From Paraspadella gotoi (lineage: Eukaryota; Animalia; Chaetognatha), in NCBI GenBank assembly GCA_051294375.1, contig CM119265.1, positions 1,914,280 through 1,978,279 of the forward strand: DNA of 64,000 bases, in the 5' to 3' direction. The notes beneath the pieces are model-generated. The model did no database searches. It was given only the letters and a program-made list of their open reading frames with translations, and was not told the DNA's origin. Positions 11,901-59,000 of the stretch are shown in pieces. A program made the translations under genes and the position numbers. How positions within the stretch are numbered: the stretch's first letter is position 1; each line of letters starts with the position of its first letter.

Positions 11901-14900
11901 TCTAGTTTATGAACTTCCAGAGTGCTTGGCTTCCCTATCTCACACAAATCACTTAACAACTCACGTGAGATCCGTTGATATTAAGGTTGGTGAATCCGAT
12001 CTTCAACGATCCCGAATAGTGAGAATGCAGCCGAAGGATGCGAACCTCGAAGAGCTCGTCGTTTGCGAGCGGTTCCGCGCTGAAGACGAGGCCGTTGGCG
12101 AAGATTTGGTCGGGACGGGTGGCGACGAGGTTTTCCGCGGAGATGACGACGTGCTTCCCGCAGAAGGAGTTGAAATGATGAGAAAGCGCTGAGGAGACGA
12201 AGTGGTGGCGAGGCTTGGTGAGTGTTTCGACGGAAAGGAGATTCAATGTAGATATTAAACTCACCAACGGCGTCTTGAGGGGAAACGGTTATGGCGTTGC
12301 CGTTGTTGTCGGCGACGACCGCTTCGCCGGCGGCGACAGCGGCGGCCGCCACTTCCGCCCCGCGAGCGGCGGCGAGGGCGCCCGAGTGTCTCGCCCGGGC
12401 GGCGTCTTGTACGATCGAGACCTGCGAACATTGACCGTACAAATCGATGACGGCGTGGACGCTGGGCGGGACGCCGACGCAGGCGGGGCCCATGTCTTCG
12501 CCGTTGAGCCAGAATCGCAGCGTCCCGTCGGACGAGCGACTCATCCCCACGCGGGAGTTGACGCCCAAAGTGTCGAGATCGAGAGCGTAACTGGAAATGT
12601 AAGAGATAGATTCTTAGAATGTGATTGAGATTTCATCAATCTCATTTGCATATAGTAGTAAATCATAAAGATTTTACAATGCTTTGCTATATTGTTTAAT
12701 TGATTCATAGATACTTCATAACCTGAGTCCCACTCTTATAGAAATGTGGCGCGACTTTTGAGAAATCAATTATGTTAAGAAATTGGTACAACAAATAGCT
12801 GATATAAATTTATTTATTCATTCATAGGACGATGGACAGGTTATGGTGGTTTAAGGCTTCCATCACACTTACAAGATAATTACAGCAGGACCCTGCAAGC
12901 TTTCAATCAAGACTCTCACACAGTCTCGTTTATTCACTCCCAGCGAACCTGGCTTCCTAATCATTGAAGGGGCATAATGTTTTTAATAACTGTTTCAATT
13001 GTATAAAACGGACCATTCTCTGTACTCCACACTAGCCTAAAAATACAAGGAGCTGACTATTATAAGATTAATACAACCGATAAGATATAAGAATTCGGTT
13101 AAATGAGAACGAGACTTATCTTTTTATCATTACCCGTTTTTGACGGGCGTTCCGTCCTGCATGACCGCGGAGCCGCTGAGCATCCACGTGTCGTAGTCGA
13201 TGTCCGTCATCGTGTTGGGGAAGGCGATGGCGTCCGGATCGATGGTGGTGACGCCGAGTTCGATGGAGCCGCTCCACCGGTCAACCATCTTGTCGATTAT
13301 CACTTCGAATATCTGAAGGAGAGAGAGAGAGAGAGAGACGTTAATCGAAGCCACGCCCCTCATCCCCTACTCTCTCCCACGTCCCTTTGTCAAATATTCC
13401 TTCAGCCCCTACCTCGTCATCAATGATCGGTCGATGTGAGATGACGATGGCGTCGTTGAATTCACCGCGCGCGTGAGGTCGCGTCGCCGTCAGCCCGTTG
13501 TTGGTGATCTTGGCGTTGGCGCCGTGGCGAGAGTGGAACCTCAACGGGTTGTTCAGAGATCCGGAGAGAGCGTTGCCGAAGGGCCGCTCGACCAGGGACG
13601 CCTGCGCCGCTTGACCGTAGAGGTCGATGACCCCGTAGACATTGGCGGGGACGTTGAAGGCGGCGAGGCCTTGGTCGACGTCGTTGACGAAGAAGTGAAG
13701 CGTCCCGTCCGCTTTGCGAGTCACGCCCACTCGATCGTCTTTAAAAGGAAAATATGATCAACGGACTTAATTGGCCTCGTGATGTGATTGCTCGTCTCCT
13801 TCACGAATCATCAGAAAGCCGACGAATCACATGCCTTACTTTTTAACCTTACACTGACCAATGACCGACAGTCGGGATTGCTTAGATAACGAGGCATTCT
13901 GCTCAAAATGAAATCTCATGAAAGAACCCTTCAAATAATTAACGAATAATTAAATATTGTCACCGCCTTAATCATTGTCCATCGTTATCAAAACTATTGT
14001 CAACCTAATACGTTTGTCTTCATTTGTTATCTCCTCTCCTTAATTTGATTAACGATATATGAAAAGAAAAATGAAAATTTTTCCGAGAAATGAATTTCTC
14101 GTCCTCTCCTCATTCCCCCCCCCCTCGACGACTCACTTTCTTGGAGTCGATCCAAGTTTTGTCCGTAATCGTCGATCACAGTCGTTCCGTTGTGCATAAC
14201 TCCTGAAAAAGGTGAGGCGACCAAAAGGTGAGGATGAAAAGGAGTCATCGGGGTGAGCGAGGGGGGGGGGCGTGGCTAACCGTTTCCGGTCATCATCCAG
14301 GTTCCGGATCGAATGTTGGTCATCGTGGATGGAAACTCGAGTTCGGAGGGAGAGTGAGTCGTGACGCCGATCTCGATCGATCCCGCCCACTTGTCCACCA
14401 GTCGGTCAAGGTTCACCTAAAATGGAGTAAATAAATAAGAATAAACAAATTGAATAAATAAATAAATTGAATGCTTGCGGGGTCCAGCTATGTTATTATC
14501 TTGTAAGAGGGATGGAGGCAATTAACCACCAAAGCCTGTCCAAAGTCAGGGGCAAGATAGCTTATTTATTGAATGAATGGATAATGTTGAATTGGTTGAA
14601 CAAACTTAATAATTGTGTGATCATTTTAAATTAAGAATAAATAACATTTGGACAAAAACAATAAATAAATAAATAAATTAAATAAATAAATAATAAATAT
14701 ATACTGACAGATAGAAGTAAAAGGATGAGAGCAGAGAGGATTAGGCATGTTGAGATGGCGTTGAAAGACTGTGGAAAATATTTGTTGTTCATTTGAGAAA
14801 GGATTTAAACAGGACTATTGGGTTGCCAAATTTGTGGTTCCAAATGGAACCGGGATTCTTCATGGTTCTTCCCCACCAACAAAGTGAGCATCTGCTCTGC

Positions 14901-17900
14901 AAACGCGACATCTCCCGAGAGAAAAACGAAGAGGAAACCCTCTCCCCGCCTTCTCTTCCCCTCCCGTACGCTACCTCAGTACGCCGACACGAGACAGAAT
15001 CACTCGTAGCCAAGCAAACCAAGAGGGGGGAATCCCGCGAAGACTTCCGGTGAAGCGCCACGCCCACTTGACCGGACGTCGTAGAAGGGGGGATGAGAAA
15101 CCGAAAAAACCAGTCCATGGACGAAAACCGGGTCTGGAGAAACTGACGGCCGGACGAGGCAACGGCCGAAAGAGCTGTCGGGGATCAGTCGGCGTCCTTA
15201 GACGTCCCTGGAGCCCCGCCCCTACGCTTGGAGGCGGCGAAGACTTGCGAGGCCGGTAGGGAGGCGAGCGGGACTACGCGGACTGCCACGCCCACGCTTG
15301 CGGCTAGCAGAAACAGCGCAATTGTGTGGCGCCCCGGAGCGGAGAAGCGAAGAATGGAACGCTTGAGTGACGTCTGTGGAGCGGTCTCCGAAAAAGAACG
15401 ACGTGGAGGGCGGAGAACTGGACAGAACTGTCTTGAGATCCGAAGGGGCAGCGTCGACAACTAAGCGCCGAGACTCGGAGAGGGCCGAACCAAAAATCGC
15501 CGCCAAACCCGACGAGGCGTCTCCAAGGGGCTTGGCAAGATCAAGGTGGCCTGCGTCCACTGCACCGGGCCCCTCCGAGCGAAGGGCCTCAACCATGAGG
15601 CGGAGAGCGTCAGCGACAGAAAAGACAGCATGAGCGGACGCTCCGGCGTCCCTCATGATGCGCTCAAAAGCCTTGAAAGCGCGCGTCTCTTGGAGTCCTT
15701 CCGAACGGCGTCGAACTGAGCGGCAAGGCAACTCTCTGAGCAGGAGACGAAAATCCGCCGGCGAAGAGACATCCGACCAGCGCCGGAAACGCGTATTGGC
15801 GGAAAGCACGTCCCACGACGGTAAAAGAACGTCGTCCTGGCCAACTCTGCGCAAATCCCTCCACTGCTGTAGGACCCACTCCGAAGGCTGTACAGAAGCA
15901 CGACGAGACAAGAGTTGTCAAACCCCGCAGCAGACTCTTCAGAGGAGGAACCCTCCTCTGATCCGGAAACGGAGGCGTCGTCGTCGACTTGCGCAGATGG
16001 GGCTCGACGAGGAAGGCGTGACGCAGTCACCCACTCGGAGCGTGAAGGCCGATCCGCCGCCGAAGAGGCCGCAAAGAAACGCGAAGACTCCAAGTCGCTG
16101 GCGTACAAACGAAGATCGACGAAGAACGGCGAAATGGCGAACAGAGGCGTCCAAGAACCATGAAGAAAACGTACATGGAAAAAAAGAGATCATTGAAAAA
16201 TGACAGTCTCAAAAAGAACCCCAAAAAACACCCCACCAAACAAGACAAGCGAGCCTGAGCCGCCCTCCACCACGCGGTGGTGCCAGGGGTGGACGGTGGG
16301 TGGTTGTTGGTGGGGAAGAACCATGAAGAATCCCGGTTCCATTTGGAACCACAAATTCTATCATGTAGTTCTTCCCCACCAACAAAGTGAGCCTGTAACA
16401 AGACCAGGCGAAGGCCCGACAAAAAACAAACACAAACAAAGTCGAGTTAGGTGGGGCACAGGAGGAAAACCCCTCTGTACGCCGAATGTACGCCAAAAAA
16501 AGGCAAAAAACAAAAACGAAAAGAAAGAAGAACTCACCGCCGAAGACTCTCCAACTCGGAACGAGACGAGCGGCAAAACTCCTTAAATTCGCGACGAACG
16601 CTAGAAAGAGCGTTGCTAATTTGGAGAAGAACTGCCTCCATCTGAAGGGGCATGACTTCGGCCTGACCAGAAAAGCCCGGAATGGCTGTGGTGGAGGCGG
16701 TGGAGGCGGCGGCGGAAGAGACATGAGGGTAGTCGAGTTGAAAAACACGCGCCTCAGTCCAAAAAACGAGAGCACTGGACAAACAAGGGGGCCGAAAACA
16801 AAGTTCTTCCCCCTGCAGCCGTCTAAGCGCCGTGGGCAAACGAGAGGGCCGAGTCGCAGCTCTTCCCTCCGCAGCCGCGCAGGGTGCGTCGAGGGCAAGG
16901 AACGAAAGGGCCGAGTCAAGGCTCTTCCCTCCGAAGCCACACACGAAGACGAAAAAGATGGCGGCCGTGAAGAGAGAACTTCAAAAAGCCACGTGTTGAA
17001 GAATATCTGTATTCTGAACTCCAAAAAAAGAGAAACGAAAAATATGCAAAATTATTCAACAAAAATAATCAAAAATAAATTTTCGTAAAAAGCCGGGAGA
17101 CTGTGAGCGCAAAGGCGCGAACAGAAGAAGTGATTCTGTCTCGTGTCGGCGTACTGAGGTAGCGTACGGAGGGGGAAGAGAGGCGGGGAAGAGGAGGTTT
17201 CCTCTTCGTTTTTCTCTCGGAGATTCACTTTGTTGGTGGGGAAGAACTACATGATAGAATTAAGTGGCAGATTGGGAATTTTCAAAAAACGAAATTTATT
17301 GGGGATTGTAATGGGTGCATTAAATGAAGATGGAACTATGGAGTGGGGAAACTTCATTAAACAAGTTAGAATTGGTTATTGGAACTTGTTTAATCAATAA
17401 GGGTATCCGGTATTGGTTATTGAGGGACCACATGTAAATAATTTTATGTAGTAGTGTCTGTTATCGGTTTATAGTATGATATAGTATTTCTATTTGCTGG
17501 TGATGTAGGGATTATTCTTGCTCTTGCATTTTCGTGAAGTAGTTTTTTGTTTATTTGTTAGTATCTCAATTTTGTTGTTAGCGTTAATTTTTGTTTTCAT
17601 TAGTGTCTTTTGTTTTTATTAGCGTCTCCTTTTGTTTTATTAGCATGCTTATGAATATGTGTTGATTGTAGTTTTTTTTATTTTTATTATTAATTATTAG
17701 AGCTGTGTTATACATAGTATATAACAACTTATACTCATACATTATTATATTATTATATTTATACATTTGTTATGGACAATTTAATAATGTGTTACCTTTA
17801 TGATGTTAGTTTTTACGTTATATTTTTTATCAGTGTAGTTTTTATTTGTTTACTGTGTTCCAGTCTTTTTACGCTGTTATTGATCTGTTACTAGTTTTGT

Positions 17901-34131: not shown

Positions 34132-36906
34132 ATGACGATGATATCGTCGAAATTTGCGTCGTTGCTTTTTCCACGGACGGCGTCGCTTCCTTCCGGCACG
34201 GCTTCGTTAAGCGGCGTTATGGCAGGGCGTCGCCACGCCTCCACCACCGAAGCCAAACTGGAGACGAAACCTTACAAGTATCACAAGTTGGAAGAGAGAG
34301 TCCCGGATGTGGGAACCGTGACGAGAGAGGAAGGGCTCAAGGCCTACAGACAGATGGCGATAATCAGGTAGAGGTTAGACGTGAGAAGATCTTTTTTGTA
34401 ACTAACTTTTTTGTGACCGAGATTGACTCTTTAAATCTCATTTGCATATTGTCGCGTTTCGTTTAGGTATGTCATTGATCAATTTTCATTATGAAATTGG
34501 TACAAACAATATAAAAATTATTGATTCATTGCATATATAGGCTAATAGGTTGGCTTGGAATTAATATTATTGTTCCTTGTTCTCTTTTTGCGTACGAAAA
34601 GTGGTTGACAATGTGCGTATGTTAAGACTTTCTCCTCCATTCCTCAGACGCTTGGAGACGGAGGCTGGGAATCTCTACAAGGAGAAAGTCATTCGCGGGT
34701 TTTGTCATCTCTATTCTGGTCAGGAGGCCATCGCTGTCGGAATGAAGGCCGCAATGATTGAGGGAGACTCTATCATAACCGCTTACAGGTAGAGGGAGTC
34801 TCTCTCTCTCTCTCCACTCTCTCTCCACTCTCTCAGTTTCTCCCCCTCCTCCACTCAGAGCCCACGGATGGAGCTACATGATGGGCGTCTCGCCAGTCGG
34901 CGTTCTCTCTGAACTCACCGGCCGTCAATCCGGCTGCGCTCTCGGCAAGGGCGGATCTATGCACATGTCAGTCGCGGGGACCGGATCTATTTTTAGATTC
35001 TTCTTCCCAACCAATCACTATTCGGTCTTCATTCTCCTCTCTTTTCCTCTTCCTCCTCTTCCTCCTCCCCTTTCTCCTCAGGTACACAAAAAACTTCTAC
35101 GGAGGCAACGGTATTGTAGGCGCCCAAATTCCCCTCGGCGCAGGCGTCGGTTTCGCAAACAAGTATCTGGATAACGGGAAGGTCATCGTCGCTTTGATGG
35201 GAGACGGAGCCGCGAATCAGGTGTGTGTGTGAGCGTAAGAGAGAGAGAGAGAGAGTGCGCGCTTTGATAAAGGAAAGAAATCAAGCTTTGATAAAGGAAA
35301 GAAATCAAGCTTTGATAAAGGAAAGAAATCAAGCTTTGATAAAGGAAAGAAATCAAGCTTTGATAAAGGAAAGAAATCAAGCTTTGATAAAGGAAAGAAA
35401 TCAAGCTTTGATAAAGGAAAGAAATCAAGCTTTGATAAAGGAAAGAAATCAAGCTTTGATAAAGGAAAGAAATCAAGCTTTGATAAAGGAAAGAAATCAA
35501 GCTTTGATAAAGGAAAGAAATCAAGCTTTGATAAAGGAAAGAAATCAAGCTTTGATAAAGGAAAGAAATCAAGCTTTGAAAAAGAAAAAAAAAAAAACTT
35601 ATGTAAAACCCCACTTCTAACCTCAGAGATATGAAAAGACTTCGGACAACCATTCCGGTGAACCCTTTCCATTTTTTCCTTTACTTTTTTTTTTTAAATC
35701 CTTTTTGTTATGATTTGGTTTTGTTTGTTCTTTCCTCTCAATCCATCTTTAGCTTTCTTTCCCCCCCCCATCTCTTTCCTCCAGGGTCAAGTGTACGAAG
35801 CCTACAACATGGCCAAACTCTGGAATGATTTGGTTTTGTTTGTTCTTTCCTCTCAATCCATCTTTAGCTTTCTTTCCCCCCAATCTCTTTTCCTCCAGGG
35901 TCAAGTGTACGAAGCCTACAACATGGCCAAACTTCTGGAATGTTTGTTCTTTCCTCTCAATCCATCTTTAGTTTTCTTTCCCCCCCCATCTCTTTTCCTC
36001 CAGGGTCAAGTGTACGAAGCCTACAACATGGCCAAACTCTGGAATGTTTGTTCTTTCCTCTCAATCCATCTTTAGTTTTCTTTCCCCCCCCCCATCTCTT
36101 TTCCTCCAAGGTCAAGTGTACGAAGCCTATAACATGGCCAAACTCTGGAATGATTTGGTTCTGTTTCTTTCCTCTCAATCCATCTTTAACTTTCTTTCCC
36201 CCCAATCTCTTTTCCTCCAGGGTCAAGTGTACGAAGCCTACAACATGGCCAAACTCTGGAATGTTTGTTCTTTCCTCTCAATCCATCTTTAGTTTTCTTT
36301 CCCCCCCCCATCTCTTTTCCTCCAGGGTCAAGTGTACGAAGCCTACAACATGGCCAAACTCTGGAATCTGCCCACAATCTTCGTCGTCGAAAACAACGGA
36401 TACGGTATGGGAACCGCGATCGAACGCGCCTCCGCCTCCACCGACTATTACACGAGGGGCGATTACATCCCTGGAATCTGGGTCGACGGTTAGTTATGGG
36501 GAGATGATGATGATTATGAATGGTGATTATCATTGAATAATGAAGATAAATTCCCAGGCATGGACTTTGTCACGGTCCGAGAGGCCACTTCTCTCGCTCT
36601 CTCCCTCTGTCGCAAAGGCCAAGGTCCCATCCTCATGGAGATGGCCACCTATCGATACGGCGGCCACTCGATGAGCGACCCCGGGACGAGCTACCGCACC
36701 CGCGAGGAGGTGCAGGAGGTGCGGCAGACCCGCGATCCCATAACCAGCTTCAAGGATCGGCTGGTGGAGGCGGGGCTGGTCGACGCCGCCGAGATGAAGA
36801 AGCTCGACCAAGAAGTGAGGAAGGAGATTGCAGAGGCCGTGCAACAGGCCAGGAGCGACGCCGAGCTCCCTCTCGATGAGCTCTTCACGCACATTGTTTA
36901 CAAGCC

Positions 36907-46916: not shown

Positions 46917-49900
46917 ATGTCCTCCATGATTTCGGCGGGATGGAGCGGCCTTGGCGAGACCTTCTACCGCAATTTCGAACTCTACTCGATGGAATGGGAT
47001 CCCAACTTCGTGGACTTGTCCCGATGCCAAGTCGCCGCGGCGCCTTACGGCGGCCCGATCGCCCTGGTCTCGCGCCCGGTGGCGCCGGCTAAGCCCATCA
47101 TCGACGTCTACAACTGTTCTGGTCGACCGCTGAGTTCCATCAAGTGGAATAGCGGGAAGTTGGTCGGAGTCGCTTGGTCGGCGTCCGAGGATCTCGTCTG
47201 CGTACAGGAGGACGGAACCGTCCTCATCTACGACATCTTCGGAGACTTCAAACGGACCGTCAGCATGGGACACGAGGCCAAGGAGATGAGGGTTATTGAT
47301 TGCAAAACCTTCGTCACCGAGCAGGTAAAGACTGATGAGTGAACTGGCTAAAGGGCGCCCGTCTACGAAATCCGCTATATACACTTTTAAAATGTTATAC
47401 AACAAGCCGGGTGAATAAACGAGAGTGAGAGTCTTGATTGAAAACTTGCAGGTTCCTGCTATGTTATTATCTTGTGAGTGTGAGGCCTTAACACACCGCC
47501 TCCATCGTTAAGCCAACCCCATTGGCTCAGAGGGGGAACACACCATCCCAAGCGTTGCGTTCCATCCTAACGACTTCCCTCTGCGTTGGCAAAGCGAGAC
47601 CGTCCTCGGGTAACCGCGCCAGTGACAGGAGGCGTCACTGAGGGTCGGAAGCCCCCAAAGCCAACAGTGAGATGCCCCATCCCAATGGGCATCACAGGCA
47701 ACCCGGCTGTTGCCATAACACCTCATTTAATAAATGAATGGATAATTCTTATATTGGGTCTAACATTTTTCTGTATAACTAATTCGGTTATTTCATTGTT
47801 TCTTTATTAATCCGACTTTCGATGACCGGATTATATAAAGCATTGAAGAGACAGAAATAGCGGTTATGAGTTAGTGACAACAGAACCATTAGCCACCTTT
47901 ATCCTGATAAAGTTCCATCCTTCGAAAAGATCCGGAATAAAACTATCTTCCTCCTCCTCCTCCCTCAGGGTACCGGCGTGGCGGTCATGACGACCGCCTT
48001 CCGCATCTTCGTCGTCAACCACATCGAGAGCAGCGACCCGCGCATCCGTCGCCTGGCGGAAATCCCCGGCCTCGCGTCGCCGCCAAACGCCTGGACGGTC
48101 TTCTACTCTGACCGTCAAACCAAAGCCCTGGTTGCCCACGATAAAGGCCTCTTCCAGGCGGACGCTTCCGGCCAACATCGACGCCTGACGCCGCCCGTCG
48201 GCGACCGCTACGACGCCGCCTCGTGGCGCGTTCGGTTCATCGCCGTCAGCTTCAACCAAAAATATCTGGCGCTTCTCTCGGATTCCGGCGTCGTTTGGGT
48301 CGGCGAACTCGATCTCGCCAAGACTCACGCCGTTCAAACGCTCAGCGGCGTTGCCGGCGCTACGAGGATGGAATTTTGCGGGGCGGGCGCCGTGGTCGTC
48401 GCTACTGAAGAGTCGCTTCGCGTCGTCGGCAAAGCGGACGAGTTTCGCATCTTTTGCGACGAAGGACCCGTCGCTCTCGTCCCGGAATTAGACGGACTTC
48501 GACTCATCTCCGTCGCGCGCCACGAGCTGTTGCAACGCGTGCCCCGACCCGTCGAGGACGTCTTCATGATCGGCTCCATGCGCGCGGGCAGCATGCTTTA
48601 CGAAGCCTACAAGGAATACGAGAAGAAGAGCAAGCGGGCGGACGAGTACATTCGGGTGATCCTAGAGCAAGGCTCCATGCCTGACGCCGTCGATCAATGC
48701 GTCATGGCCGCCGCGGAAGAGTTCGAGTCCAAACTGCAGAAGGAGCTGCTAAGGGCGGCCTCCTTTGGGAAGTGCTTCGAGACCGCCGTCGATTCCAACA
48801 AGTTCGTCGACGTCTGCCGCAGCTCGCGCATCCTCCACAACGTCCGCCACGACAATCACGTCGCCATCCCGCTCACCTTCTCTCAGCTCAAACAGCTGAC
48901 CGTGCCCGTTCTGGTGGACAGGCTGGTCCTCCGCCGCCAGTACGGCCTCGCCCTCAAAATTTGTCAATACCTCAAGATGTCCGAGGCGGAGGGAGCCGCG
49001 CGCATCCTCGCCCACTGGGCTCGATTCAAAGTGCTGCAGCAGCATCTTCCCGACGATCGCATCGCCCGCGCCATCGTCGACAAGGTCAAGGATACGGCGG
49101 GCATCTCCTACGCGGATATCGCCGAAGAAGCCTACGAACGAGGCCGACCCGAGCTGGCCATAGCCCTGCTGGATCACGAGCCAAAGGCCAGCAGGCAGGG
49201 ACGCCTGTTGCTCAAGATGAAGGAAGAGAAATTGGCGCTGAAGAAGGCGATCGAATCGGGCGACACGGATTTCATCTACTTGGTTCTCCTCCACATGAGG
49301 TCCTCGCCCGATTCATCCCCTGGACAGTTCTTCATGATTCTTCAGAACAAAGAATTCGAGCCCGCCCTCCATCTCTTCGTACAGTACTGCAAGGAGAGGC
49401 CGGAACGGGCGCAGGATCTCCAGTATCTCTACGAGCAAGAGTTGAATCCCAACGCGATGGCCGAGTGGCATCTGGAGGAAGCCCTTAAGTCGGGAGATCT
49501 CAACGCGAGGCTTTCCCAGTTGAGGGCCGCTTCGGAGAAGTTCAAGCTGCAGAACGAACAACATTCCAGGTGGGTTGACCAGGAAAAAAAAAGGATATTA
49601 AAGAAAGAGAATATGGGAAAAAGATCATGAAAAATGGATGAAAAATTCGGTCTTCTAGGAAGAAAAGGTGTAAGAGAAAAGGTCTAAGAGAAGAGGTCCG
49701 GAAAAAAACCCCAAATTTCTTAATTAAAAAAATTAATTTGTGTTGTATATTTTTCCTTTTTCCTTTTTCACTCCAGATTCACCGACGATCAAATCAAACT
49801 GTTGCGATTCCAAAAGAAACTTGAAGACGAGTTGGAGAAACCTTTCCTCGATCTCAGTCTCCAGGAGACGATGTTCTCTCTCACATCCATCGGCCAACAC

Positions 49901-50627: not shown

Positions 50628-52994
50628 ATGGCAGCGATTAATTTCGAATTTTTGCGAGACGACGACGACGATAAAAAGGACGACGACATAGACAAAAACC
50701 AAGGTGAGTCACTAATATAACAAAAGAGTTGTCTTTATTTATTTATTATTATTATATTAACTTTATTTCTACCCCCCCCCCCTCCGAATTCAGTCGACGC
50801 GGACACGGAGAGTTCCGAATGCGGAGAACCGGAAATTGACGTCGCCGACGAGACCCTCCTGACGCCGATGCAGCGGCTGGAGAGGTTAGCCCGCTGCTTC
50901 TGCTTCCGCTGCTGCTGCTTCTGCTGCTATTTTGGTTTACCTTAAACATTAAGCAACTCCTCCACCTCCCCCCCTCCCCCCTCCAGATACCTGAACAGCG
51001 AGAACGCTTTCGAACGCCAGATGGTCGCACGGACTCTCTTGGACGGACTGAGGGAGAGTCTCCACGATCCGGATCAAACGGCGGGAATGCTCGATCACAT
51101 GAGCAAACTCTCCCACGATTCCGAGCCCATGGTGCGGGCGGAACTCATGGAGCAGATCCCTCACATCGCGATGCTTTGTCACGTCAACGCTCCCGCCGTT
51201 CCAAGGTCAATGGAGAGAGAGAGAGACAGACAGACAGACACGAGTCTCTTCTGTCCCTTAAATTAGACGAGAATCTCGCTTAAAAAAAAATTCAAAACAT
51301 TTTTCTAATAGAGAATTCCGTTCAAATCTGACTACCCAAATTGCAAACGCGTTTGCCAGAAATTCGGTTAAAAAACACTTGTAAAAACGCTCGATTCCGA
51401 GAGCGTTGCATCTGAAGAGCTTGTCCTATTCGTTTTATGTGCATTTGATAAAGGATTTAATATCAAACAAGCCAGGGGAAATGCACTACTCATCTCCGGA
51501 GAATTTTCAAACCTCATTTTTACTATAGAAATGAAAGGGAAAGTTTACAAACTTAAAATATGCAAACGGGATTGGCTATATGTTCCTGTTACATGAGCGA
51601 CTTCGAATTTTCGCGATTCTGATAGCTTTGTGTCTGAAGAGCTTGTCCTATTTTTCTTTTTCATTTTATAATGATTTTGACATAAAATGATCAGGTTTAA
51701 ATGAAATAGTCCGCGTTTGAATCGCAAAATTTTATTTAAAAAGAAATTAAAAGGAAAGGTTGAGAAAAAAACTGATTTTCTTTAATATCTTTTGAAGGAA
51801 TAAAGATAAAGGGATGGTAATAGTACCAAATGGAAGCCATTAATCATAGGCACATACAAGATACAATTTTAGAATTACTTATGCTGAAACCTCCTTTACA
51901 GGTGAGTGTCAAACTAAGTCAAAATTATAATGAATTTTAAAAACTATGACACCCCATAAGAATAAATGAAGATTTAATTCTTTTTAATGATTCTTAAAGA
52001 AAAAGGCTAAATTGTACTCTAGTAAAACTTTAAAGTTTTTTGGATAAAGAAAATGTGAATTTTTTGTCACTTAAATATTTGCTTGTCTGATTTTACAAGC
52101 ATGCTTACAAAATTCTACAAAATATTATTCACCCCATCACGGCCTAAGTATTTATCTTTCTTTTCCACAGCAAAAAGTAAACATTATTTTCTGAGAACAG
52201 GATGTTACTGAAATGAGCCGGAAGACATTCAACTCTTCACTTTACTGTCATTTTTCAATAATAAAATAGGCGAATTTTTTAATTATTTAACTCTCACAGG
52301 CTTCAAAAGACATTATACGTTCATAATATCCCAATGTTAATGTAATTTATTATATTTTTTACCCTTCGCTCGTTTAAGAAAAAAAAATTAACTAGCGGAA
52401 TTATAAGTTTGTAAGAGGAAGTCAGAATCGGCGAAAATCTTAAAAGGGGAGAATGTTGAAAAAAAGGGTTGGAATTTTGATTGGTTTCCTAAGATTTCTC
52501 CACAATGTGAGGTCCGATTAAAGCGAAACTTGAGATTTACAATATTCCCGTCATTCCACATCTATCGATATAAAAATATAAGAAAAAAGTCACTGGCTTC
52601 TTTTTCTATAACGGCTTCCTACTTAAATCTTAAGCGAATCCAATTCCTCTTTCTCCGCTCAACCCAGGGTCATGCCCGAGCGCATTCTCCCCATTTTGGT
52701 TCATTATCTTCGCGACAACAACAACCAAGTGAGGAAAACTAGTCAAGCGGCTCTGCTCGTCCTTTTGGAGCAAGGTAAGTCTTTCCGTCTCTCTCTCTCT
52801 CTCACTCCCTTATTAGATTCTTTTATAATGCCAGGCCTGCTGGACTCGGCGGACGTGAACCGCCAAGTGTGCCCCGTTCTGGAGGAGTTGACGGCCTTCG
52901 AGTCTGTCGACGATTTTCGGACGGAGGCCGTCGCTTTGATGACGAGGTGAAGAAATGAATGAAGGAGGAATAAAAGAAATGATTAAAAGGATCT

Positions 52995-53033
<39 letters not shown>

Positions 53034-56000
53034 GTCTCTTTCTCACAGAATGGCGTCGTTTTTGGGTCCGGAAATCACGGAAAATTTCTTCCTCCCTCGA
53101 TTCACGAACCTCTGTTCGGATAATCTCTTCCACGTGCGAAAAGTCTGCGCCGCCAACATCGGTCAGTTTTTTTTTTTTTTAAGTCGAGCGAATCTCGTTG
53201 CGGATGAAGTGAATCGCCGTCGACAATATTTTAAAACACAACGCGAATCCCTCATTTCCTTCATCATGAATTTGGTACAACCAATATAAAAATTATCCAT
53301 TCGTTTAATAAATATTAAATAAGTTATCTTGCCCCTGACTTTGGACAGGCTTTTGTGGTTTAGGTTTTTTTTTCTTTTCCGCTTTCTCTTATAAACTTCT
53401 GTAAATCTGTATTCTATCATGTAGTTCTTCCCCACACAAGTGAGCATCTGCTCTGCAAACGCGACATCTCCCGAGAGAAAAACGAAGAGGAAAACTCCTC
53501 TTCCCCGCCTTCTCTTCCCCTCCCGTACGCTACCTCAGTACGCCGACACGAGACAGAATCACTTCTCTGTTCGCGCCTTTGCGCTCACAGTCTCCCGGCT
53601 TTTTTACGAAAATATTTTTTGATTATTTTTTGTGAAATAATTTGCATATTTTTTCGTTTCTCTTTTTTTGGAGTTCAGAATACAGATATTCTTCACACGA
53701 TGGCTTTTTTGAAGTTCTCTCTTCACGGCCGCCATCTTTTTCGTCTTCGTTGTGCGTGGCTTCGGAGGAAGAGCCTTGACTCGGCCCTTTCGCTTGCCCT
53801 CGACGCACCCTGCGGGCTGCGGAGGGAAGAGCCGCGACTCGGCCCTCTCGTTTGCCCTCGGCGCTTAGTACGGCTGCAGGGGGAAGAACCTTGTTTCGGC
53901 CCCTTGTTTGTCCAGTGCTCTCCGTTTTTTGGACTGAGGCCGTGTTTTCAACTCGACTACCCTCATGTCTCTTCCGCCGCCTCCTTCGCCGCCGCCTCCA
54001 CCGCCGCTCACCGCCTCCACCATCAGCCATTCCGGGCTTTTCTGGTCAGGCCGAAGTCATGCCCCTTCAGATGGAGGCAGTTCTGCTCCAAATTAGCAAC
54101 GCTCTTTCTAGCGTTCGTCGCGAATTTAAGGAGTTTCGCCGCTCGTCTCGTTCCGAGTTGGAGAGTCTTCGGCGGTGAGTACTTCTTTCTTTCGTTTTTG
54201 TTTTTTCGCCTTTTTTTGGCGTACATTCGGCGTACAGAGGGGTTTTCCTCCTGTGCCCCACCTAACTCGACTTTGTTTGTTTGTTTTTTGTCGGGCCTTC
54301 GCCTGGTCTTGTTACAGGCTCACTTGTTGGTGGGGAAGAACTACATGATAGAATTTGTGGTTCCATATGGAACCGGGATTCTTCATGGTTCTTCCCACCA
54401 ACAACCACCCACGTCCACCCCTGGCACCACCGGTGGTGGAGGCGGCTCAGGCTCGCTTGTCTTGTTTGGTGGGTTTTTTTGGGGTTCCTTTTTTTGAGAC
54501 TGTCATTTTTCAATGATTTCTCTTTTTTTCCATGTACGTTTTCTTCATGGTTCTTGGATGCCTCTGTTCGCCATTTCGCCGTTCTTCGTCGATCTTCGTT
54601 TGTTCGCCAGCGACTTGGAGTCTTCGCGTTCTTTGGCGGCCTCTTCGGCGGCGGATCGGCCTTCACGCTCCGAGCGGGTGACTGCGTCACGCTTCCTCGT
54701 CGAGCCCGTCTGCGCAAGTCGACGACGACGCCTCCGTTTCCGGATCAGAGGAGGGTTCCTCCTCTGAGAGTCTGCTGCGGGTTTGACAACTTCTTGTCTC
54801 GTCGTGCTTCTATACAGCCTTCGGAGTGGGTCCTGCAGCAGTGGAAGGATTTGCGCAGTTGGCCAGGACGACGTTCTTTTACCGTCGTGGACGTGCTTTC
54901 CGCCAATACGCGTTTTCGGCGCTGGTCGGATGTTTCTTCGCCGGCGGAGTTTCGTCCTCCTGCTCAAGAGAGTTGCCTTGCCGCTCAGTTCGACGCCGTT
55001 CGGAAGGACTCCAAGACGACGCGCGCTTTCAAGGCTTTTGAGCGCATCATGAGGGACGCCTGAGCGTCCGCTCATGCTGTCCTTTCTGTCGCTGACGCTC
55101 TCCGCCTCATGGTTGAGGCCCTACGCTCGGAGGGGCCCGGTGCAGTGGACGCAGGCCACCTTGACGATCTTGCCAGCCCCTTGGAGACGCCTCGTCGGGT
55201 TTGGCGGCGATTTTTGGTTCTCTCCGCGTCTCGGCGCTTAGTTGTCGACGCTGCCCCTTCGGATCTCAAGACAGTTGTCCAGTTCTCCGCCCTCCACGTC
55301 GTTCTTTTTCGGAGACCGCTCCACAGACGTCACTCAAGCGTTCCATTCTTCGCTCTCCGCTCCGGGCGCCACACAATTGCGCCTGTTCTGCTAGCCGCAA
55401 GCGTGGGCGTGGCAGTCCGTGTAGTCCCGCTCGCCGTCCCTACCGGCCTCGCAAGTCTTCGCCGCCTCCCAAGCGTAGGGCGGGGCTCCAGGGACGTCTA
55501 AGGACGCCGACTGATCGCCCGACAGCTCTTTCGGCCGTTGCCTCGTCCGGCCTCAGGTTCTCCAGGCCCGGATTCGTCCATGGACTGGTTTTTTTGCGGT
55601 TTCTCATCCCCCCCTTCTACGACGTCCGGTCAAGTGGGCGTGGCACGTCACCGGAAGTCTTCGCGGGATTCCCCCTCTTGGTTTGCTTGGTTACGAGTGA
55701 TTCTGTCTCGTGTCGGCGTACTGAGGTAGCGTACGGGAGGGGAAGAGAAGGCGGGGAAGAGGATTTTCCTCTCGTTTTTCTCTCGGGAGATGTCGCGTTT
55801 GCAGAGCAGATGCTCACTTGTTGGTGGGGAAGAACCATGAAGAATCCGGTTCCATATGGAACCACAAATTCCGTTTTTTCTTATCGATATTCCCCCCATC
55901 CCTCTTTCCCATATTCCTTTTTTCCGCCTCATTCCTATTTCCCCATTCCCTTTTCCCCACTTTTACTATTCCCCCCCCCTCCGCCCCCTTTCTCCGTTCT

Positions 56001-59000
56001 TTTCTCTCCTCTCTTTTTTACCCCACCCCCCATCTTCCCAGGCGACATGTGCAGCGTGGTGGGACGCGGTGCCACCGAAGAGTATCTTCTCCCCAAATTC
56101 TTCTACCTCTGCGAAGACGGAGTGTGGGGCGTGAGGAAGGCCTGCGCTGAGTGCTACATGAGCGTCTCCACGGCGTGTTCTCAGGGAAGGCGTCAAACGC
56201 AACTGGCGCCCATGTTCGTCAACCTGCTCTGCGATCAATCCAGGCAAGAGGCGCGAGGGCATTCCGGGAAAAGGATGTGAATGCGTCGCTTAAGTCTCAT
56301 TTCTTTTTCTTTTTTCTTTTTCTTTTCCTTTTTCTTTTCCTTTTCCTTTTTCTCATATCTTTTTCTTCTGGAAACGTTTACTCAAGCTTCTCCATTGTCT
56401 GTCATCTGGCAGACTCTTCCTCTCTCATCTCTCACAGGGTTTTGTCTCACCGTATTTTTTCTACTCCTTTTTCAATAATCTTACATGAGCCAGTTTAAAA
56501 TATACAATGTCGCCTTGTCACTAGCCACTAACTTTAAGTGTTATAGGGGAGCGTTTTACTTCAGTGTTGTATGGTTACTTTGTTGTCCTGGAGGTTGACT
56601 CTGATGTTTAGTTGTTTTACTCTTGATGGCGCGGTGATGTTGTCCTCTGATGTTGATGTCTTATTATTTATTGTTTTCCTCATTTCCTCCCCAGGTGGGT
56701 CCGCATGGCGGCCTTCCAACAACTCGGTCCCTTCATCTCCACCTTCGCCGAATCCGAGGAGCGAATAACGGAGAACGAGGACAGCAGCATCATGAGTCAA
56801 GCGGACGAAATGCTCGGCGGCGCAGCAGCCAAGCCCGCCGCAAACTCCACCTCCGACGCGACGACGCCGCTCGTTGCCAACGCCACGCAACTGGCGAATT
56901 CATCCGCTCCATCCTCAGCGGCGACATCGAGTCACCCCGCCGCTCCGCCAGTCCCCGCCTCCGCCGCGCCGCCGCCGCCCGCGCCGCCGACTTCCTCGTC
57001 GGTCACCATCGAGATTGAACCCGCCGACGCCGCCGAATCCACGCCGACCAACTTTTCCTCGGTTGCCATGGAGATCGACGCGGCGTCGACGCCCGACCCC
57101 GCCCACTCAGACTCGGACGTCTCCTCGGAGGAGCGAAGAGCGGCTTGGTTCCTTTGTATCCGAGAATCGTCCGGCGAACCGGCGCCGACGCATCCGTGCG
57201 GCGTCGTCACGGCGTCCATCGCACAAACCTCCCTCGAATCAATCAATCCCGCCGAGCCGGAGACGTTGACGACGACAACCACCACAACAACGACGACGAC
57301 GACGACGACTCCGTCCATGGAAGATGACTTCAACAACTTCAACTACTGGTACATCCCTCCGCCAGCGATCGAGGATCTTGCGGCGGCGGCGACGACGATC
57401 CTTTCCCCTTCGATTCCTCGACCGACGGGATTCTTGGATGGAATCATCGGCGCCGAAAATGGAACGATAGAGGGCGTGGAGAGGCTCACCATTGAAGAGG
57501 CCAAGGAAGAGGAGGAGGCGAGAGTTTGGGACGAGCGGGAGGAAGAGATTCCCGAAAATCTTAAGGCGAGTTAAGGGAGAGGGAAATAATAAAAATAATA
57601 ATAATAATAGAAATAATAATAAAAATAATAAAAAATAAAATGGTAAAAGCGTTTAGAAATTAACCGTTTGTTAAGGAATGAGGTTATCTTGTCTCATGGA
57701 AGGTTCCATCCGTTTTATTTTAAACCGTTTAGTTTTAATTTTAACCGATTATAAGCTGAATGAATAAACGAGAACTGGGCTGAACTGCAAGCTTTCAATT
57801 TCGTAGCCTCGTCCTTGGTTTCCTTATTTGAGATTGTCAGTTTAATAATAATTAAGCAAATAGTAAATAATATATTTGACTAGTATTTGGTGTGTTTTCC
57901 AGGATCCTCCCTTAGCTATGTCTTCGCCGGACAAGGCCGACGAGTCGACGACGACGAGCGACGCGAAAGAGATGATCGTCCACGATCCCGCCGCTCACTT
58001 ATTCGCCGGTAAATCTTTTGAGATCCACGGCGATTAAAATGTCAACGTTCGAGACAAAGACCCATCGTGTCTCTCTCTCTCTCCCCCCCCCCCCTTGGCC
58101 ACTTCCAGACGACGACGACGACGACGGGGAACCCCCTCTCCTCCTCGTCTCACCTCAGGACGACGGCCTGACCTCTCGACGGGGCGGGGCGCTCGGCTCT
58201 TACCTCGACCCTCTCACCGAAGAGGGCGAGGAGAGGGGACGGGAGGCGGAGGCGTTGGTGTTTCAGCCGCGGCAGGTGAATAGAAAGACGAAGGAAATGA
58301 TGTAACAAAGATGAAGATAAAATGAATCCAAGACGAAGGAAATGATGTAACAAAGATGAAGATAAAATGAATCGAAGACGAAGGAAATGATGTAACAAAG
58401 ATGAAGAAAAAATGAATCAAAGAGGATGTATTCGGCGATAAACTTTTTCGACTCGTTTCCACAGAACGTCGTCCCGTCAGACTTGTTGGATTATTTCCTC
58501 TCGATGGCGGATCCCGCCAAAGTTCAGGTTGGTTTGCGAGTTTTCGATTTGATTTGCGTTTTTGAGTCTCATGATTCGTTAACATATATCGCAGCATTCT
58601 CTATTGGGGTCGGGTTGAGTAATCTTTTTTGTCGGTCGCCAGTAGTTGATATTATCTGAGAAGTAATTTAATTAAGTGGGAATTTAGGTGAGAAAATGAC
58701 CATTTTGTGATGGAGACAATATCGTGGACAATCTGTAAATTCGTAAAATTTCTAATTTCGTTGTTATATCAATTCTACGCAAGCAGAAAGTTGTAATTCG
58801 ATTTTCTTCGGGTTTTGTAGGTTTTGTTCAATTGCGAAAGCAATTTGTACAGACATGGAAAATATGATATTCAAGGCGGAAATTTAAGAATTCAAACTGG
58901 CGAAGATGGTTCTCGTAAAATTCTCAATCCTTTTCCCGTCAGACCGTGGACACTGAGTTGACGCGCCACTGCGCCTTCTCCATCCCAGCCGTCGCCCTCA

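Follow-up and report, generated by a model that had tools for sequence, protein, structure and literature searches.

Why would a retroelement carry the template for its own ends inside what may be an intron of its gag gene? The question is raised by a DIRS1-like element that occurs twice (copies A and B) in a 64,000-nucleotide stretch of the genome of the chaetognath Paraspadella gotoi (assembly GCA_051294375.1, contig CM119265.1, positions 1,914,280 to 1,978,279 of the forward strand), henceforth referred to as the window, in whose numbering coordinates are given. The element encodes Gag and none of the usual enzymes, and its internal complementary region (ICR), the reverse complement of its joined ends, lies within a GT..AG segment that interrupts the gag frame. 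The answer we favour, with confidence about evenly balanced against doubt, is that this gag-only element holds its ICR in a likely gag intron, with unspliced RNA serving as the template for new copies and spliced RNA being a Gag-making dead end.

The two copies and the ends of the element are laid out as follows:
53411..55870, forward strand: whole element, copy A, with ATT at both ends
14829..17260, reverse strand: whole element, copy B, with ATT at both ends
53411..53563, forward strand: left inverted terminal repeat (ITR) of copy A by self-comparison; its outer portion is unlike the right ITR and agrees with the ICR
55696..55845, forward strand: right ITR of copy A by self-comparison
55846..55870, forward strand: right extension, a GGTTCC..GGAACC hairpin complementary to the ICR only
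53753..53910, forward strand: 58-bp tandem repeat of 2.5 copies in the 5' leader

In a global alignment the copies are 94% identical and differ by 50 substitutions and 79 gaps, most of them of a single base. The ITRs of copy A, ~150 bp each and inverted, are 95.5% alike and non-identical at the outer end. ATT stands at all four ends of the two copies, the flanks are unrelated and there is no longer target duplication. The terminal hairpin motif, with up to three mismatches allowed, occurs eight times in the window, where 0.16 occurrences are expected, and every occurrence falls within copy A or B. Self-comparison and the alignment of the copies thus bear out what a preliminary description of this DNA had reported, namely two copies, ITRs of ~150 bp and a right-end extension with a hairpin. 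The left ITR of copy B is short by 23 nt (at 17226-17222) that are present in its right ITR, owing to a post-insertion deletion or an assembly error.

The ICR occupies corresponding positions in both copies:
54318..54404, forward strand: ICR of copy A, 87 nt, reverse complement of the joined ends
16392-16304, reverse strand: ICR of copy B, within the putative intron of that copy

The first and second parts of the ICR are complementary to the left and right ends, respectively, and overlap in the AAT at 54352-54354 that corresponds to the circle junction; the whole folds into a single long hairpin. The orientation is canonical and the placement is not: counted from the left end the ICR lies at 907 nt, upstream of the gag core, and a further ~1.3 kb separates it from the right ITR. 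The same description had placed this signal, the joined ends in reverse complement, ~0.9 kb inside the left end and not beside the right ITR, which self-comparison upholds, and its statement that the ICR of canonical DIRS1 lies downstream of the open reading frames (ORFs) agrees with PMC3266345, PMC8969392 and PMC7192593 (cited, like the other papers below, for excerpts), which put the ICR at the 3' end and give ATT as the commonest terminal triplet. Variants private to each copy bear on whether the displaced ICR works. One run of T, present in both ITRs and in the ICR, has two T throughout copy A and three T throughout copy B. The apex of the terminal hairpin likewise varies from one copy to the other, while inside each copy ICR and right extension agree. 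Such agreement is the expectation from end regeneration on the ICR, and on the basis of these two sites in two copies the displaced ICR likely still templates the ends.

Downstream of the ICR lies the long ORF, here ORF2:
54611..55514, forward strand: ORF2, with a low-complexity and acidic stretch, a DIRS ORF1/Gag core and a basic tail; interrupted by indels in the assembly
15276..15905, reverse strand: Gag core of copy B, where a profile built from 17 outside homologues has its longest uninterrupted match when the six frames of the window are scanned (domain E 1e-31, which is not independent, the homologues having been found with copy B as the query)

This ORF is a DIRS ORF1/Gag. When 205 residues of copy B were searched against 1.84 billion representative proteins, 21 matches were obtained (best E 1.7e-10), 18 of which form one family of proteins, mostly 250-390 residues long, in which a conserved core stands between an acidic stretch and a basic tail; the other three, long repetitive proteins, were excluded as unrelated. 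The profile matches ORF2 of copy A in pieces (54797-55355) and nothing in the rest of the window below E 0.14. One homologue, at a metagenome locus (L001) that comes without both element ends and is the sole related locus recovered from metagenomes, lies directly upstream of a reverse transcriptase (RT) ORF (RVT_1, E 3.4e-28), with an overlapping third ORF. The later pol motifs of L001 we take to be RNase H and methyltransferase. The structure model of Gag (mean predicted local distance difference test score 70.8) has two chains of LAP2alpha (2v0x) as its top two Foldseek matches (E 0.083, probability 0.91), and structural alignment with LAP2alpha gave Z 8.6 and a root-mean-square deviation of 3.6 over 164 residues, the next entry reaching 6.0. 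A LAP2alpha match is apt for a DIRS Gag, the LAP2alpha domain being derived from DIRS1 ORF1 according to excerpts of PMC4495291 and PMC9210276. Two points count against this identification: the fold Z is under the tool's safe level for helical proteins and the scores are modest, and Pfam finds no LAP2alpha domain, nor any relevant family, in the element frames or the homologues.

Other searches for relatives gave little. Profile search of the PDB sequences produced nothing useful and the Atlas search no usable match; word-based protein search with the copy B frame retained none of 4323 candidates, and with the alignment as query it gave four. Protein-based scans of viral and prokaryote sequences yielded no related locus, nor did a scan for the ICR pattern, and Rfam returned 0 matches. 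The longest contigs of homologues P0014, P0018 and P0008 measure ~2.5-2.7 kb and those of P0010, P0012 and P0013 ~5 kb, as one would expect of gag-only and full-length elements, respectively. The absence of RT, RNase H and tyrosine recombinase, as first described, was borne out in two ways. At the Pfam cut-off no family (RT, RNase H, methyltransferase and tyrosine recombinase included) was found in 13 element frames, and tblastn with the pol and third ORF of L001, the latter incomplete, found no match in copies A and B (best E 0.23, outside the elements).

The ICR falls between the gag core and an upstream frame:
53965..54174, forward strand: candidate exon 1, 70 codons, with an ATG, a poly-Pro tract and a charged, likely helical stretch
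54175..54610, forward strand: putative intron of copy A, 436 nt, GT..AG, T-rich, containing the ICR
16098..16537, reverse strand: putative intron of copy B, 440 nt, GT..AG

This segment had been described as U-rich, ~440 nt long, bracketed by CG/GTGAGT (54175; 16537) and CGCCAG/C (54610; 16098), and as joining two ORF halves in frame on its removal. The brackets are present in both copies, and the length (436 and 440 nt) and composition (40% T, compared with 25-26% for the frames on either side) are as described; every frame of the segment contains stops. The in-frame fusion stands for both copies as assembled and is uncertain for the real family sequence, in view of the 79 gaps, the broken ORFs and an indel pair at 54629/54635. 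By a crude score the donor, GCG/GTGAGT at 54175, ranks first among the 158 GT sites of copy A, and it beats two of the three host donors scored (one host donor had been placed a base off). The exon 1 frame ends at the TGA inside GGTGAG, that is exactly at the donor, as do in such a motif 12 of the 730 window frames of at least 50 codons (1.6%). From its sequence this upstream frame has the look of a coding frame: base use by codon position is similar to that of ORF2 and of the L001 gag, 54058 and 54085 vary without changing an amino acid, and in copy B the frame runs from the ATG to the donor, given one X at a copy difference; the link from the ATG to the frame spans an indel between the copies. 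An alternative frame for exon 1 was ruled out by its lack of acidic residues, its 25% W/C/F and its reverse base pattern. A divergent copy in the RNA run X8 also retains GCGGTGAGT, and DNA contigs cross both the donor (runs X9 and X1) and the acceptor (X9 and X7) unspliced. The intron folds strongly (z -6), at least partly owing to the ICR hairpin. In addition, 54216-54240 can pair with 54561-54608 in a modest duplex (z -2.0 in copy A, -3.0 in copy B), which could mask the acceptor or draw the splice sites together.

How such an intron could persist is suggested by analogy with DIRS-1. According to excerpts of PMC7192593, the ICR of DIRS-1 is essential, its RT acts in trans, marker introns are gone from new copies, and an element without ICR still makes complementary DNA (cDNA) and gives no insertion. 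By this analogy, RNA of our element would start in the left ITR and be reverse-transcribed by the RT of a partner in trans, its ends would be rebuilt and joined on the ICR, and it would be inserted at ATT by the partner's tyrosine recombinase. Spliced RNA, by comparison, would encode a Gag of ~370 residues, lack the ICR and found no copy. An ordinary intron would be lost at the first retrotransposition; an intron bearing the ICR would be unlosable because the spliced RNA has no ICR, and this ratchet, in which loss of the intron is loss of the ICR, would let a strong donor persist. Since marker introns are lost from DIRS-1 and an ICR-less element does not insert, an intron in a DIRS element should persist only if splicing kills replication or is rare, a condition that an intron around the ICR would meet. 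Dependence on a partner in trans, already proposed in the preliminary description, is supported by the Gag-only content and by the trans-acting RT of DIRS-1 in the excerpts of PMC7192593; among the sequences searched, no autonomous partner was found.

Several observations weigh against the intron and the switch, beginning with RNA. Run X8 splices the host introns 52775-52834 and 53162-56041 (the latter as a GT..AG joint) at depth 174, which identifies it, alone among the runs, as RNA; DNA runs X6 and X7 cross 52775-52834 unspliced. In X8 a 257-nt contig of depth 590, which may be of either strand, passes the acceptor unspliced (54419-54671). Unspliced element RNA therefore exists, and a minor spliced form is compatible with it; a nearby second repeat has a similar RNA-to-DNA ratio, so that passive read-through of many copies may supply much of the element RNA. 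The 54174-54611 joint is absent among the joints listed for seven runs and so are intronless DNA copies, neither of which is evidence of absence, as contigs drop minor forms. The acceptor at 54610 ranks 11th of 118 AG sites by the crude score; the one YTRAY in the segment, at 54262, is better suited to the AG at 54317 than to that at 54610; and 54317, with CCTAAC (54261) upstream of it and just before the ICR, is a second acceptor-like site. Silent changes number eight of 20, where a fraction of 0.26-0.30 is expected (P 0.12-0.22, in the subset of variants listed).

The reading frame was examined by comparing gap counts for 22 contig pieces from 64 listed rows, with host, divergent and duplicate pieces left out. 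Thirteen pieces overlap ORF2, of which ten agree exactly with taking the longer allele as the real one and two more do so with a listed substitution allowed; most frame breaks are thus likely to be bases missing from the assembly. When every disagreement is entered as X, ORF2 stays open for 298 codons (54517-55391), and 290 codons were reached by 1.5% of 2000 shuffles. At two places this longer-allele rule would shift the frame, and it is here that the first rival, which we regard as unlikely, finds its evidence: that the ancestral intron was real, the amplified subfamily has a frameshifted gag, and the element is a pure passenger that keeps the intron along with the ICR and has no working switch. 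The first place is the compensating indel pair at 54629/54635, six codons past the acceptor. If both alleles are real, the join shifts by one base and runs into a stop near 54766, and ORF2 would instead have its ATGs at 54532 and 54547. By gap count three of four contig pieces over 54629-54635 fit this shift and one X7 piece does not. Gap counts, however, do not tell where a gap lies, and it could come from long T or C runs that are under-called in both copies. The second place is the pair at 55382/55386, where ORF2 ends at 55392 or 55514 by the state chosen and a long X2 piece fits a shift; 26 codons then follow the FFG motif, compared with 67 as assembled and 70-82 in 15 of the 17 homologues, which calls for caution with the longer-allele rule. 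The non-significance of the silent excess would suit a passenger, as would an older in-register heptad duplication at the intron ends, to which an imperfect direct repeat there corresponds. Against a passenger, the assembled sequence keeps the two window copies in frame at either site, and the remainder of ORF2 is open for ~250 codons.

That direct repeat (~15 nt; 54157-54173 and 54615-54627) may be a duplicated coiled-coil heptad or else the scar of an insertion, and in the latter case it would belong to a second rival, to us similarly improbable, in which there is no intron. The element would then be a rearranged deletion derivative whose T-rich 3' block moved with the ICR into gag, the GT and AG being there by chance and gag being dead or starting at an internal ATG. 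The unspliced RNA and the ordinary acceptor suit such a rearrangement, the ATGs at 54532 and 54547 are in frame under one reading, and DIRS-1 often inserts into itself (excerpts of PMC5633606). Against this rival stand a best donor placed right where the upstream frame stops (1.6% background), the retention of GCGGTGAGT in the divergent X8 copy, and gag halves that are both open around the block. A cassette exon, in which the donor at 54175 joins the acceptor at 54317 and a weak donor at 54469 (tied second-best) joins the acceptor at 54610, 54174-54611 being the skipping product, has in its favour CCTAAC (54261) and a run of pyrimidines ahead of TTACAG (54317) and is very improbable, because the cassette-spliced RNA keeps the ICR and should found copies without the flanking introns, which both copies and the DNA contigs retain, and because the two-T/three-T variant in the ICR changes the frame, making the block unlikely to be coding.

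A broader form of the switch model, in which an ICR within an intron is a working switch inherited from a DIRS1 clade that includes autonomous elements and only intron-retaining RNA is copied, is in our judgement doubtful. A hint of a clade-wide layout is a pyrimidine run and CAG at 67-85 of L001, just before the acidic stretch of its gag; another is that homologues lie on contigs of ~5 kb and ~2.6 kb. At 48-85 of L001 a branch-like CTTAAT precedes the pyrimidine run and CAG, the AG ranking eighth of 140, a lead and not evidence; the called N-termini of P0060 and P0010 resemble a translated pyrimidine tract.

With regard to copy number, element contigs in DNA run X7 have depths of 505 and 692 compared with 8.9 and 16.5 for unique host pieces, a ratio that suggests, roughly, tens of copies. 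The region 53480-53660 (ITR and start of the leader) has depths of 3879 and 3280 in X9 compared with 74-99 in the interior and is likewise deeper in X7, which suggests that a more abundant relative shares the ends. A further feature just behind the ICR is shared as well:
54412..54442, forward strand: GC-rich hairpin, recognised from loose contig ends, gap rows and fold

This hairpin also occurs with other flanks in a deeper sister sequence (depth 1482.8 in X8 against ~590), and the same loose ends appear in X7; the sister may be another family or the partner. From the deeper end regions and this deeper sister, relatives of the element exist in the host.

Copy A sits in sense orientation inside the host intron 53162-56041, in a gene that we presume to be PPP4R1-like, for which Pfam gave no family in the one frame scanned. 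Domains elsewhere in the window, whose genes look compact, are Vps16, GOST, CSN8, Neuralized and GST. Close to each copy there is a ~100-bp repeat of very high copy number (53266-53362 and ~14500-14600; summed depth tens to hundreds of thousands), probably by chance. An AT-rich multi-copy repeat is found in a host intron at 51700-52620, in DNA and RNA runs; a dispersed repeat has two copies in opposite orientation, 85-95% alike, at 1536-1768 and 47494-47719; and a 24-bp tandem array at 35165-35668 adjoins an array at 35710-36414 with a unit of ~105-115 bp.

The preliminary description did not recognise this architecture as previously described, and we likewise found no gag-only DIRS element with ITRs and ICR, no ICR upstream of gag and no natural DIRS1 gag intron in the literature covered (full text, mostly of open papers; Repbase and Dfam are outside this scope, and a prior entry may exist). 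In the main text of two DIRS surveys, PMC3266345 being one, the word 'intron' is absent. The balance between translation and replication in DIRS elements is an open question, DIRS-1 being the only element tested in the literature found. An ICR that lies 1.3 kb upstream, and likely works away from the right end, constrains models of replication. If the intron is real, it would offer a simple reason for intron retention by a retroelement, namely that the spliced form cannot be copied. For the curation of transposable elements, gag-only DIRS copies can escape screens based on RT or recombinase.

Compared with known systems, the element is most like DIRS1 itself, with which it shares non-identical ITRs, a right extension, a two-part ICR of 87 nt in canonical orientation with a 3-bp overlap, ATT ends and an ORF1 of the LAP2alpha type. 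It differs in having no RT, RNase H, methyltransferase or recombinase, and in the place of its ICR, which in DIRS1 is near the right ITR and here is upstream of the gag core, in the GT..AG segment that splits the gag frame. Lacking three canonical features, pol, recombinase and a 3' ICR, it is classed as a non-autonomous DIRS1 derivative with a relocated ICR. TOC1 of Chlamydomonas presumably has split direct repeats in place of ITRs and an ICR. It resembles our element in being a non-autonomous member of the same DIRS order (excerpts of PMC9940879). Penelope-like elements keep introns through retrotransposition, with introns of the 5' untranslated region overlapping the promoter, and excerpts of PMC8557442 call the reason for retention unknown. 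They share with our element an intron kept by a retroelement and belong to another class. In plants, TR-GAG elements consist of direct long terminal repeats flanking gag alone, have no ICR and are moved in trans in an integrase-dependent manner. The likeness is in terminal repeats around a lone gag, and the difference is that our element's repeats are inverted and an ICR is present. Retroviruses remove the packaging signal from spliced RNA. In BARE1, gag RNA is spliced, and the separation of translated and replicated RNA pools has been shown experimentally (excerpts of PMC3735527). What distinguishes our element from both is the nature of the signal that splicing would remove, which here would be the template for rebuilding the ends, a template that in DIRS-1 acts after first-strand synthesis.
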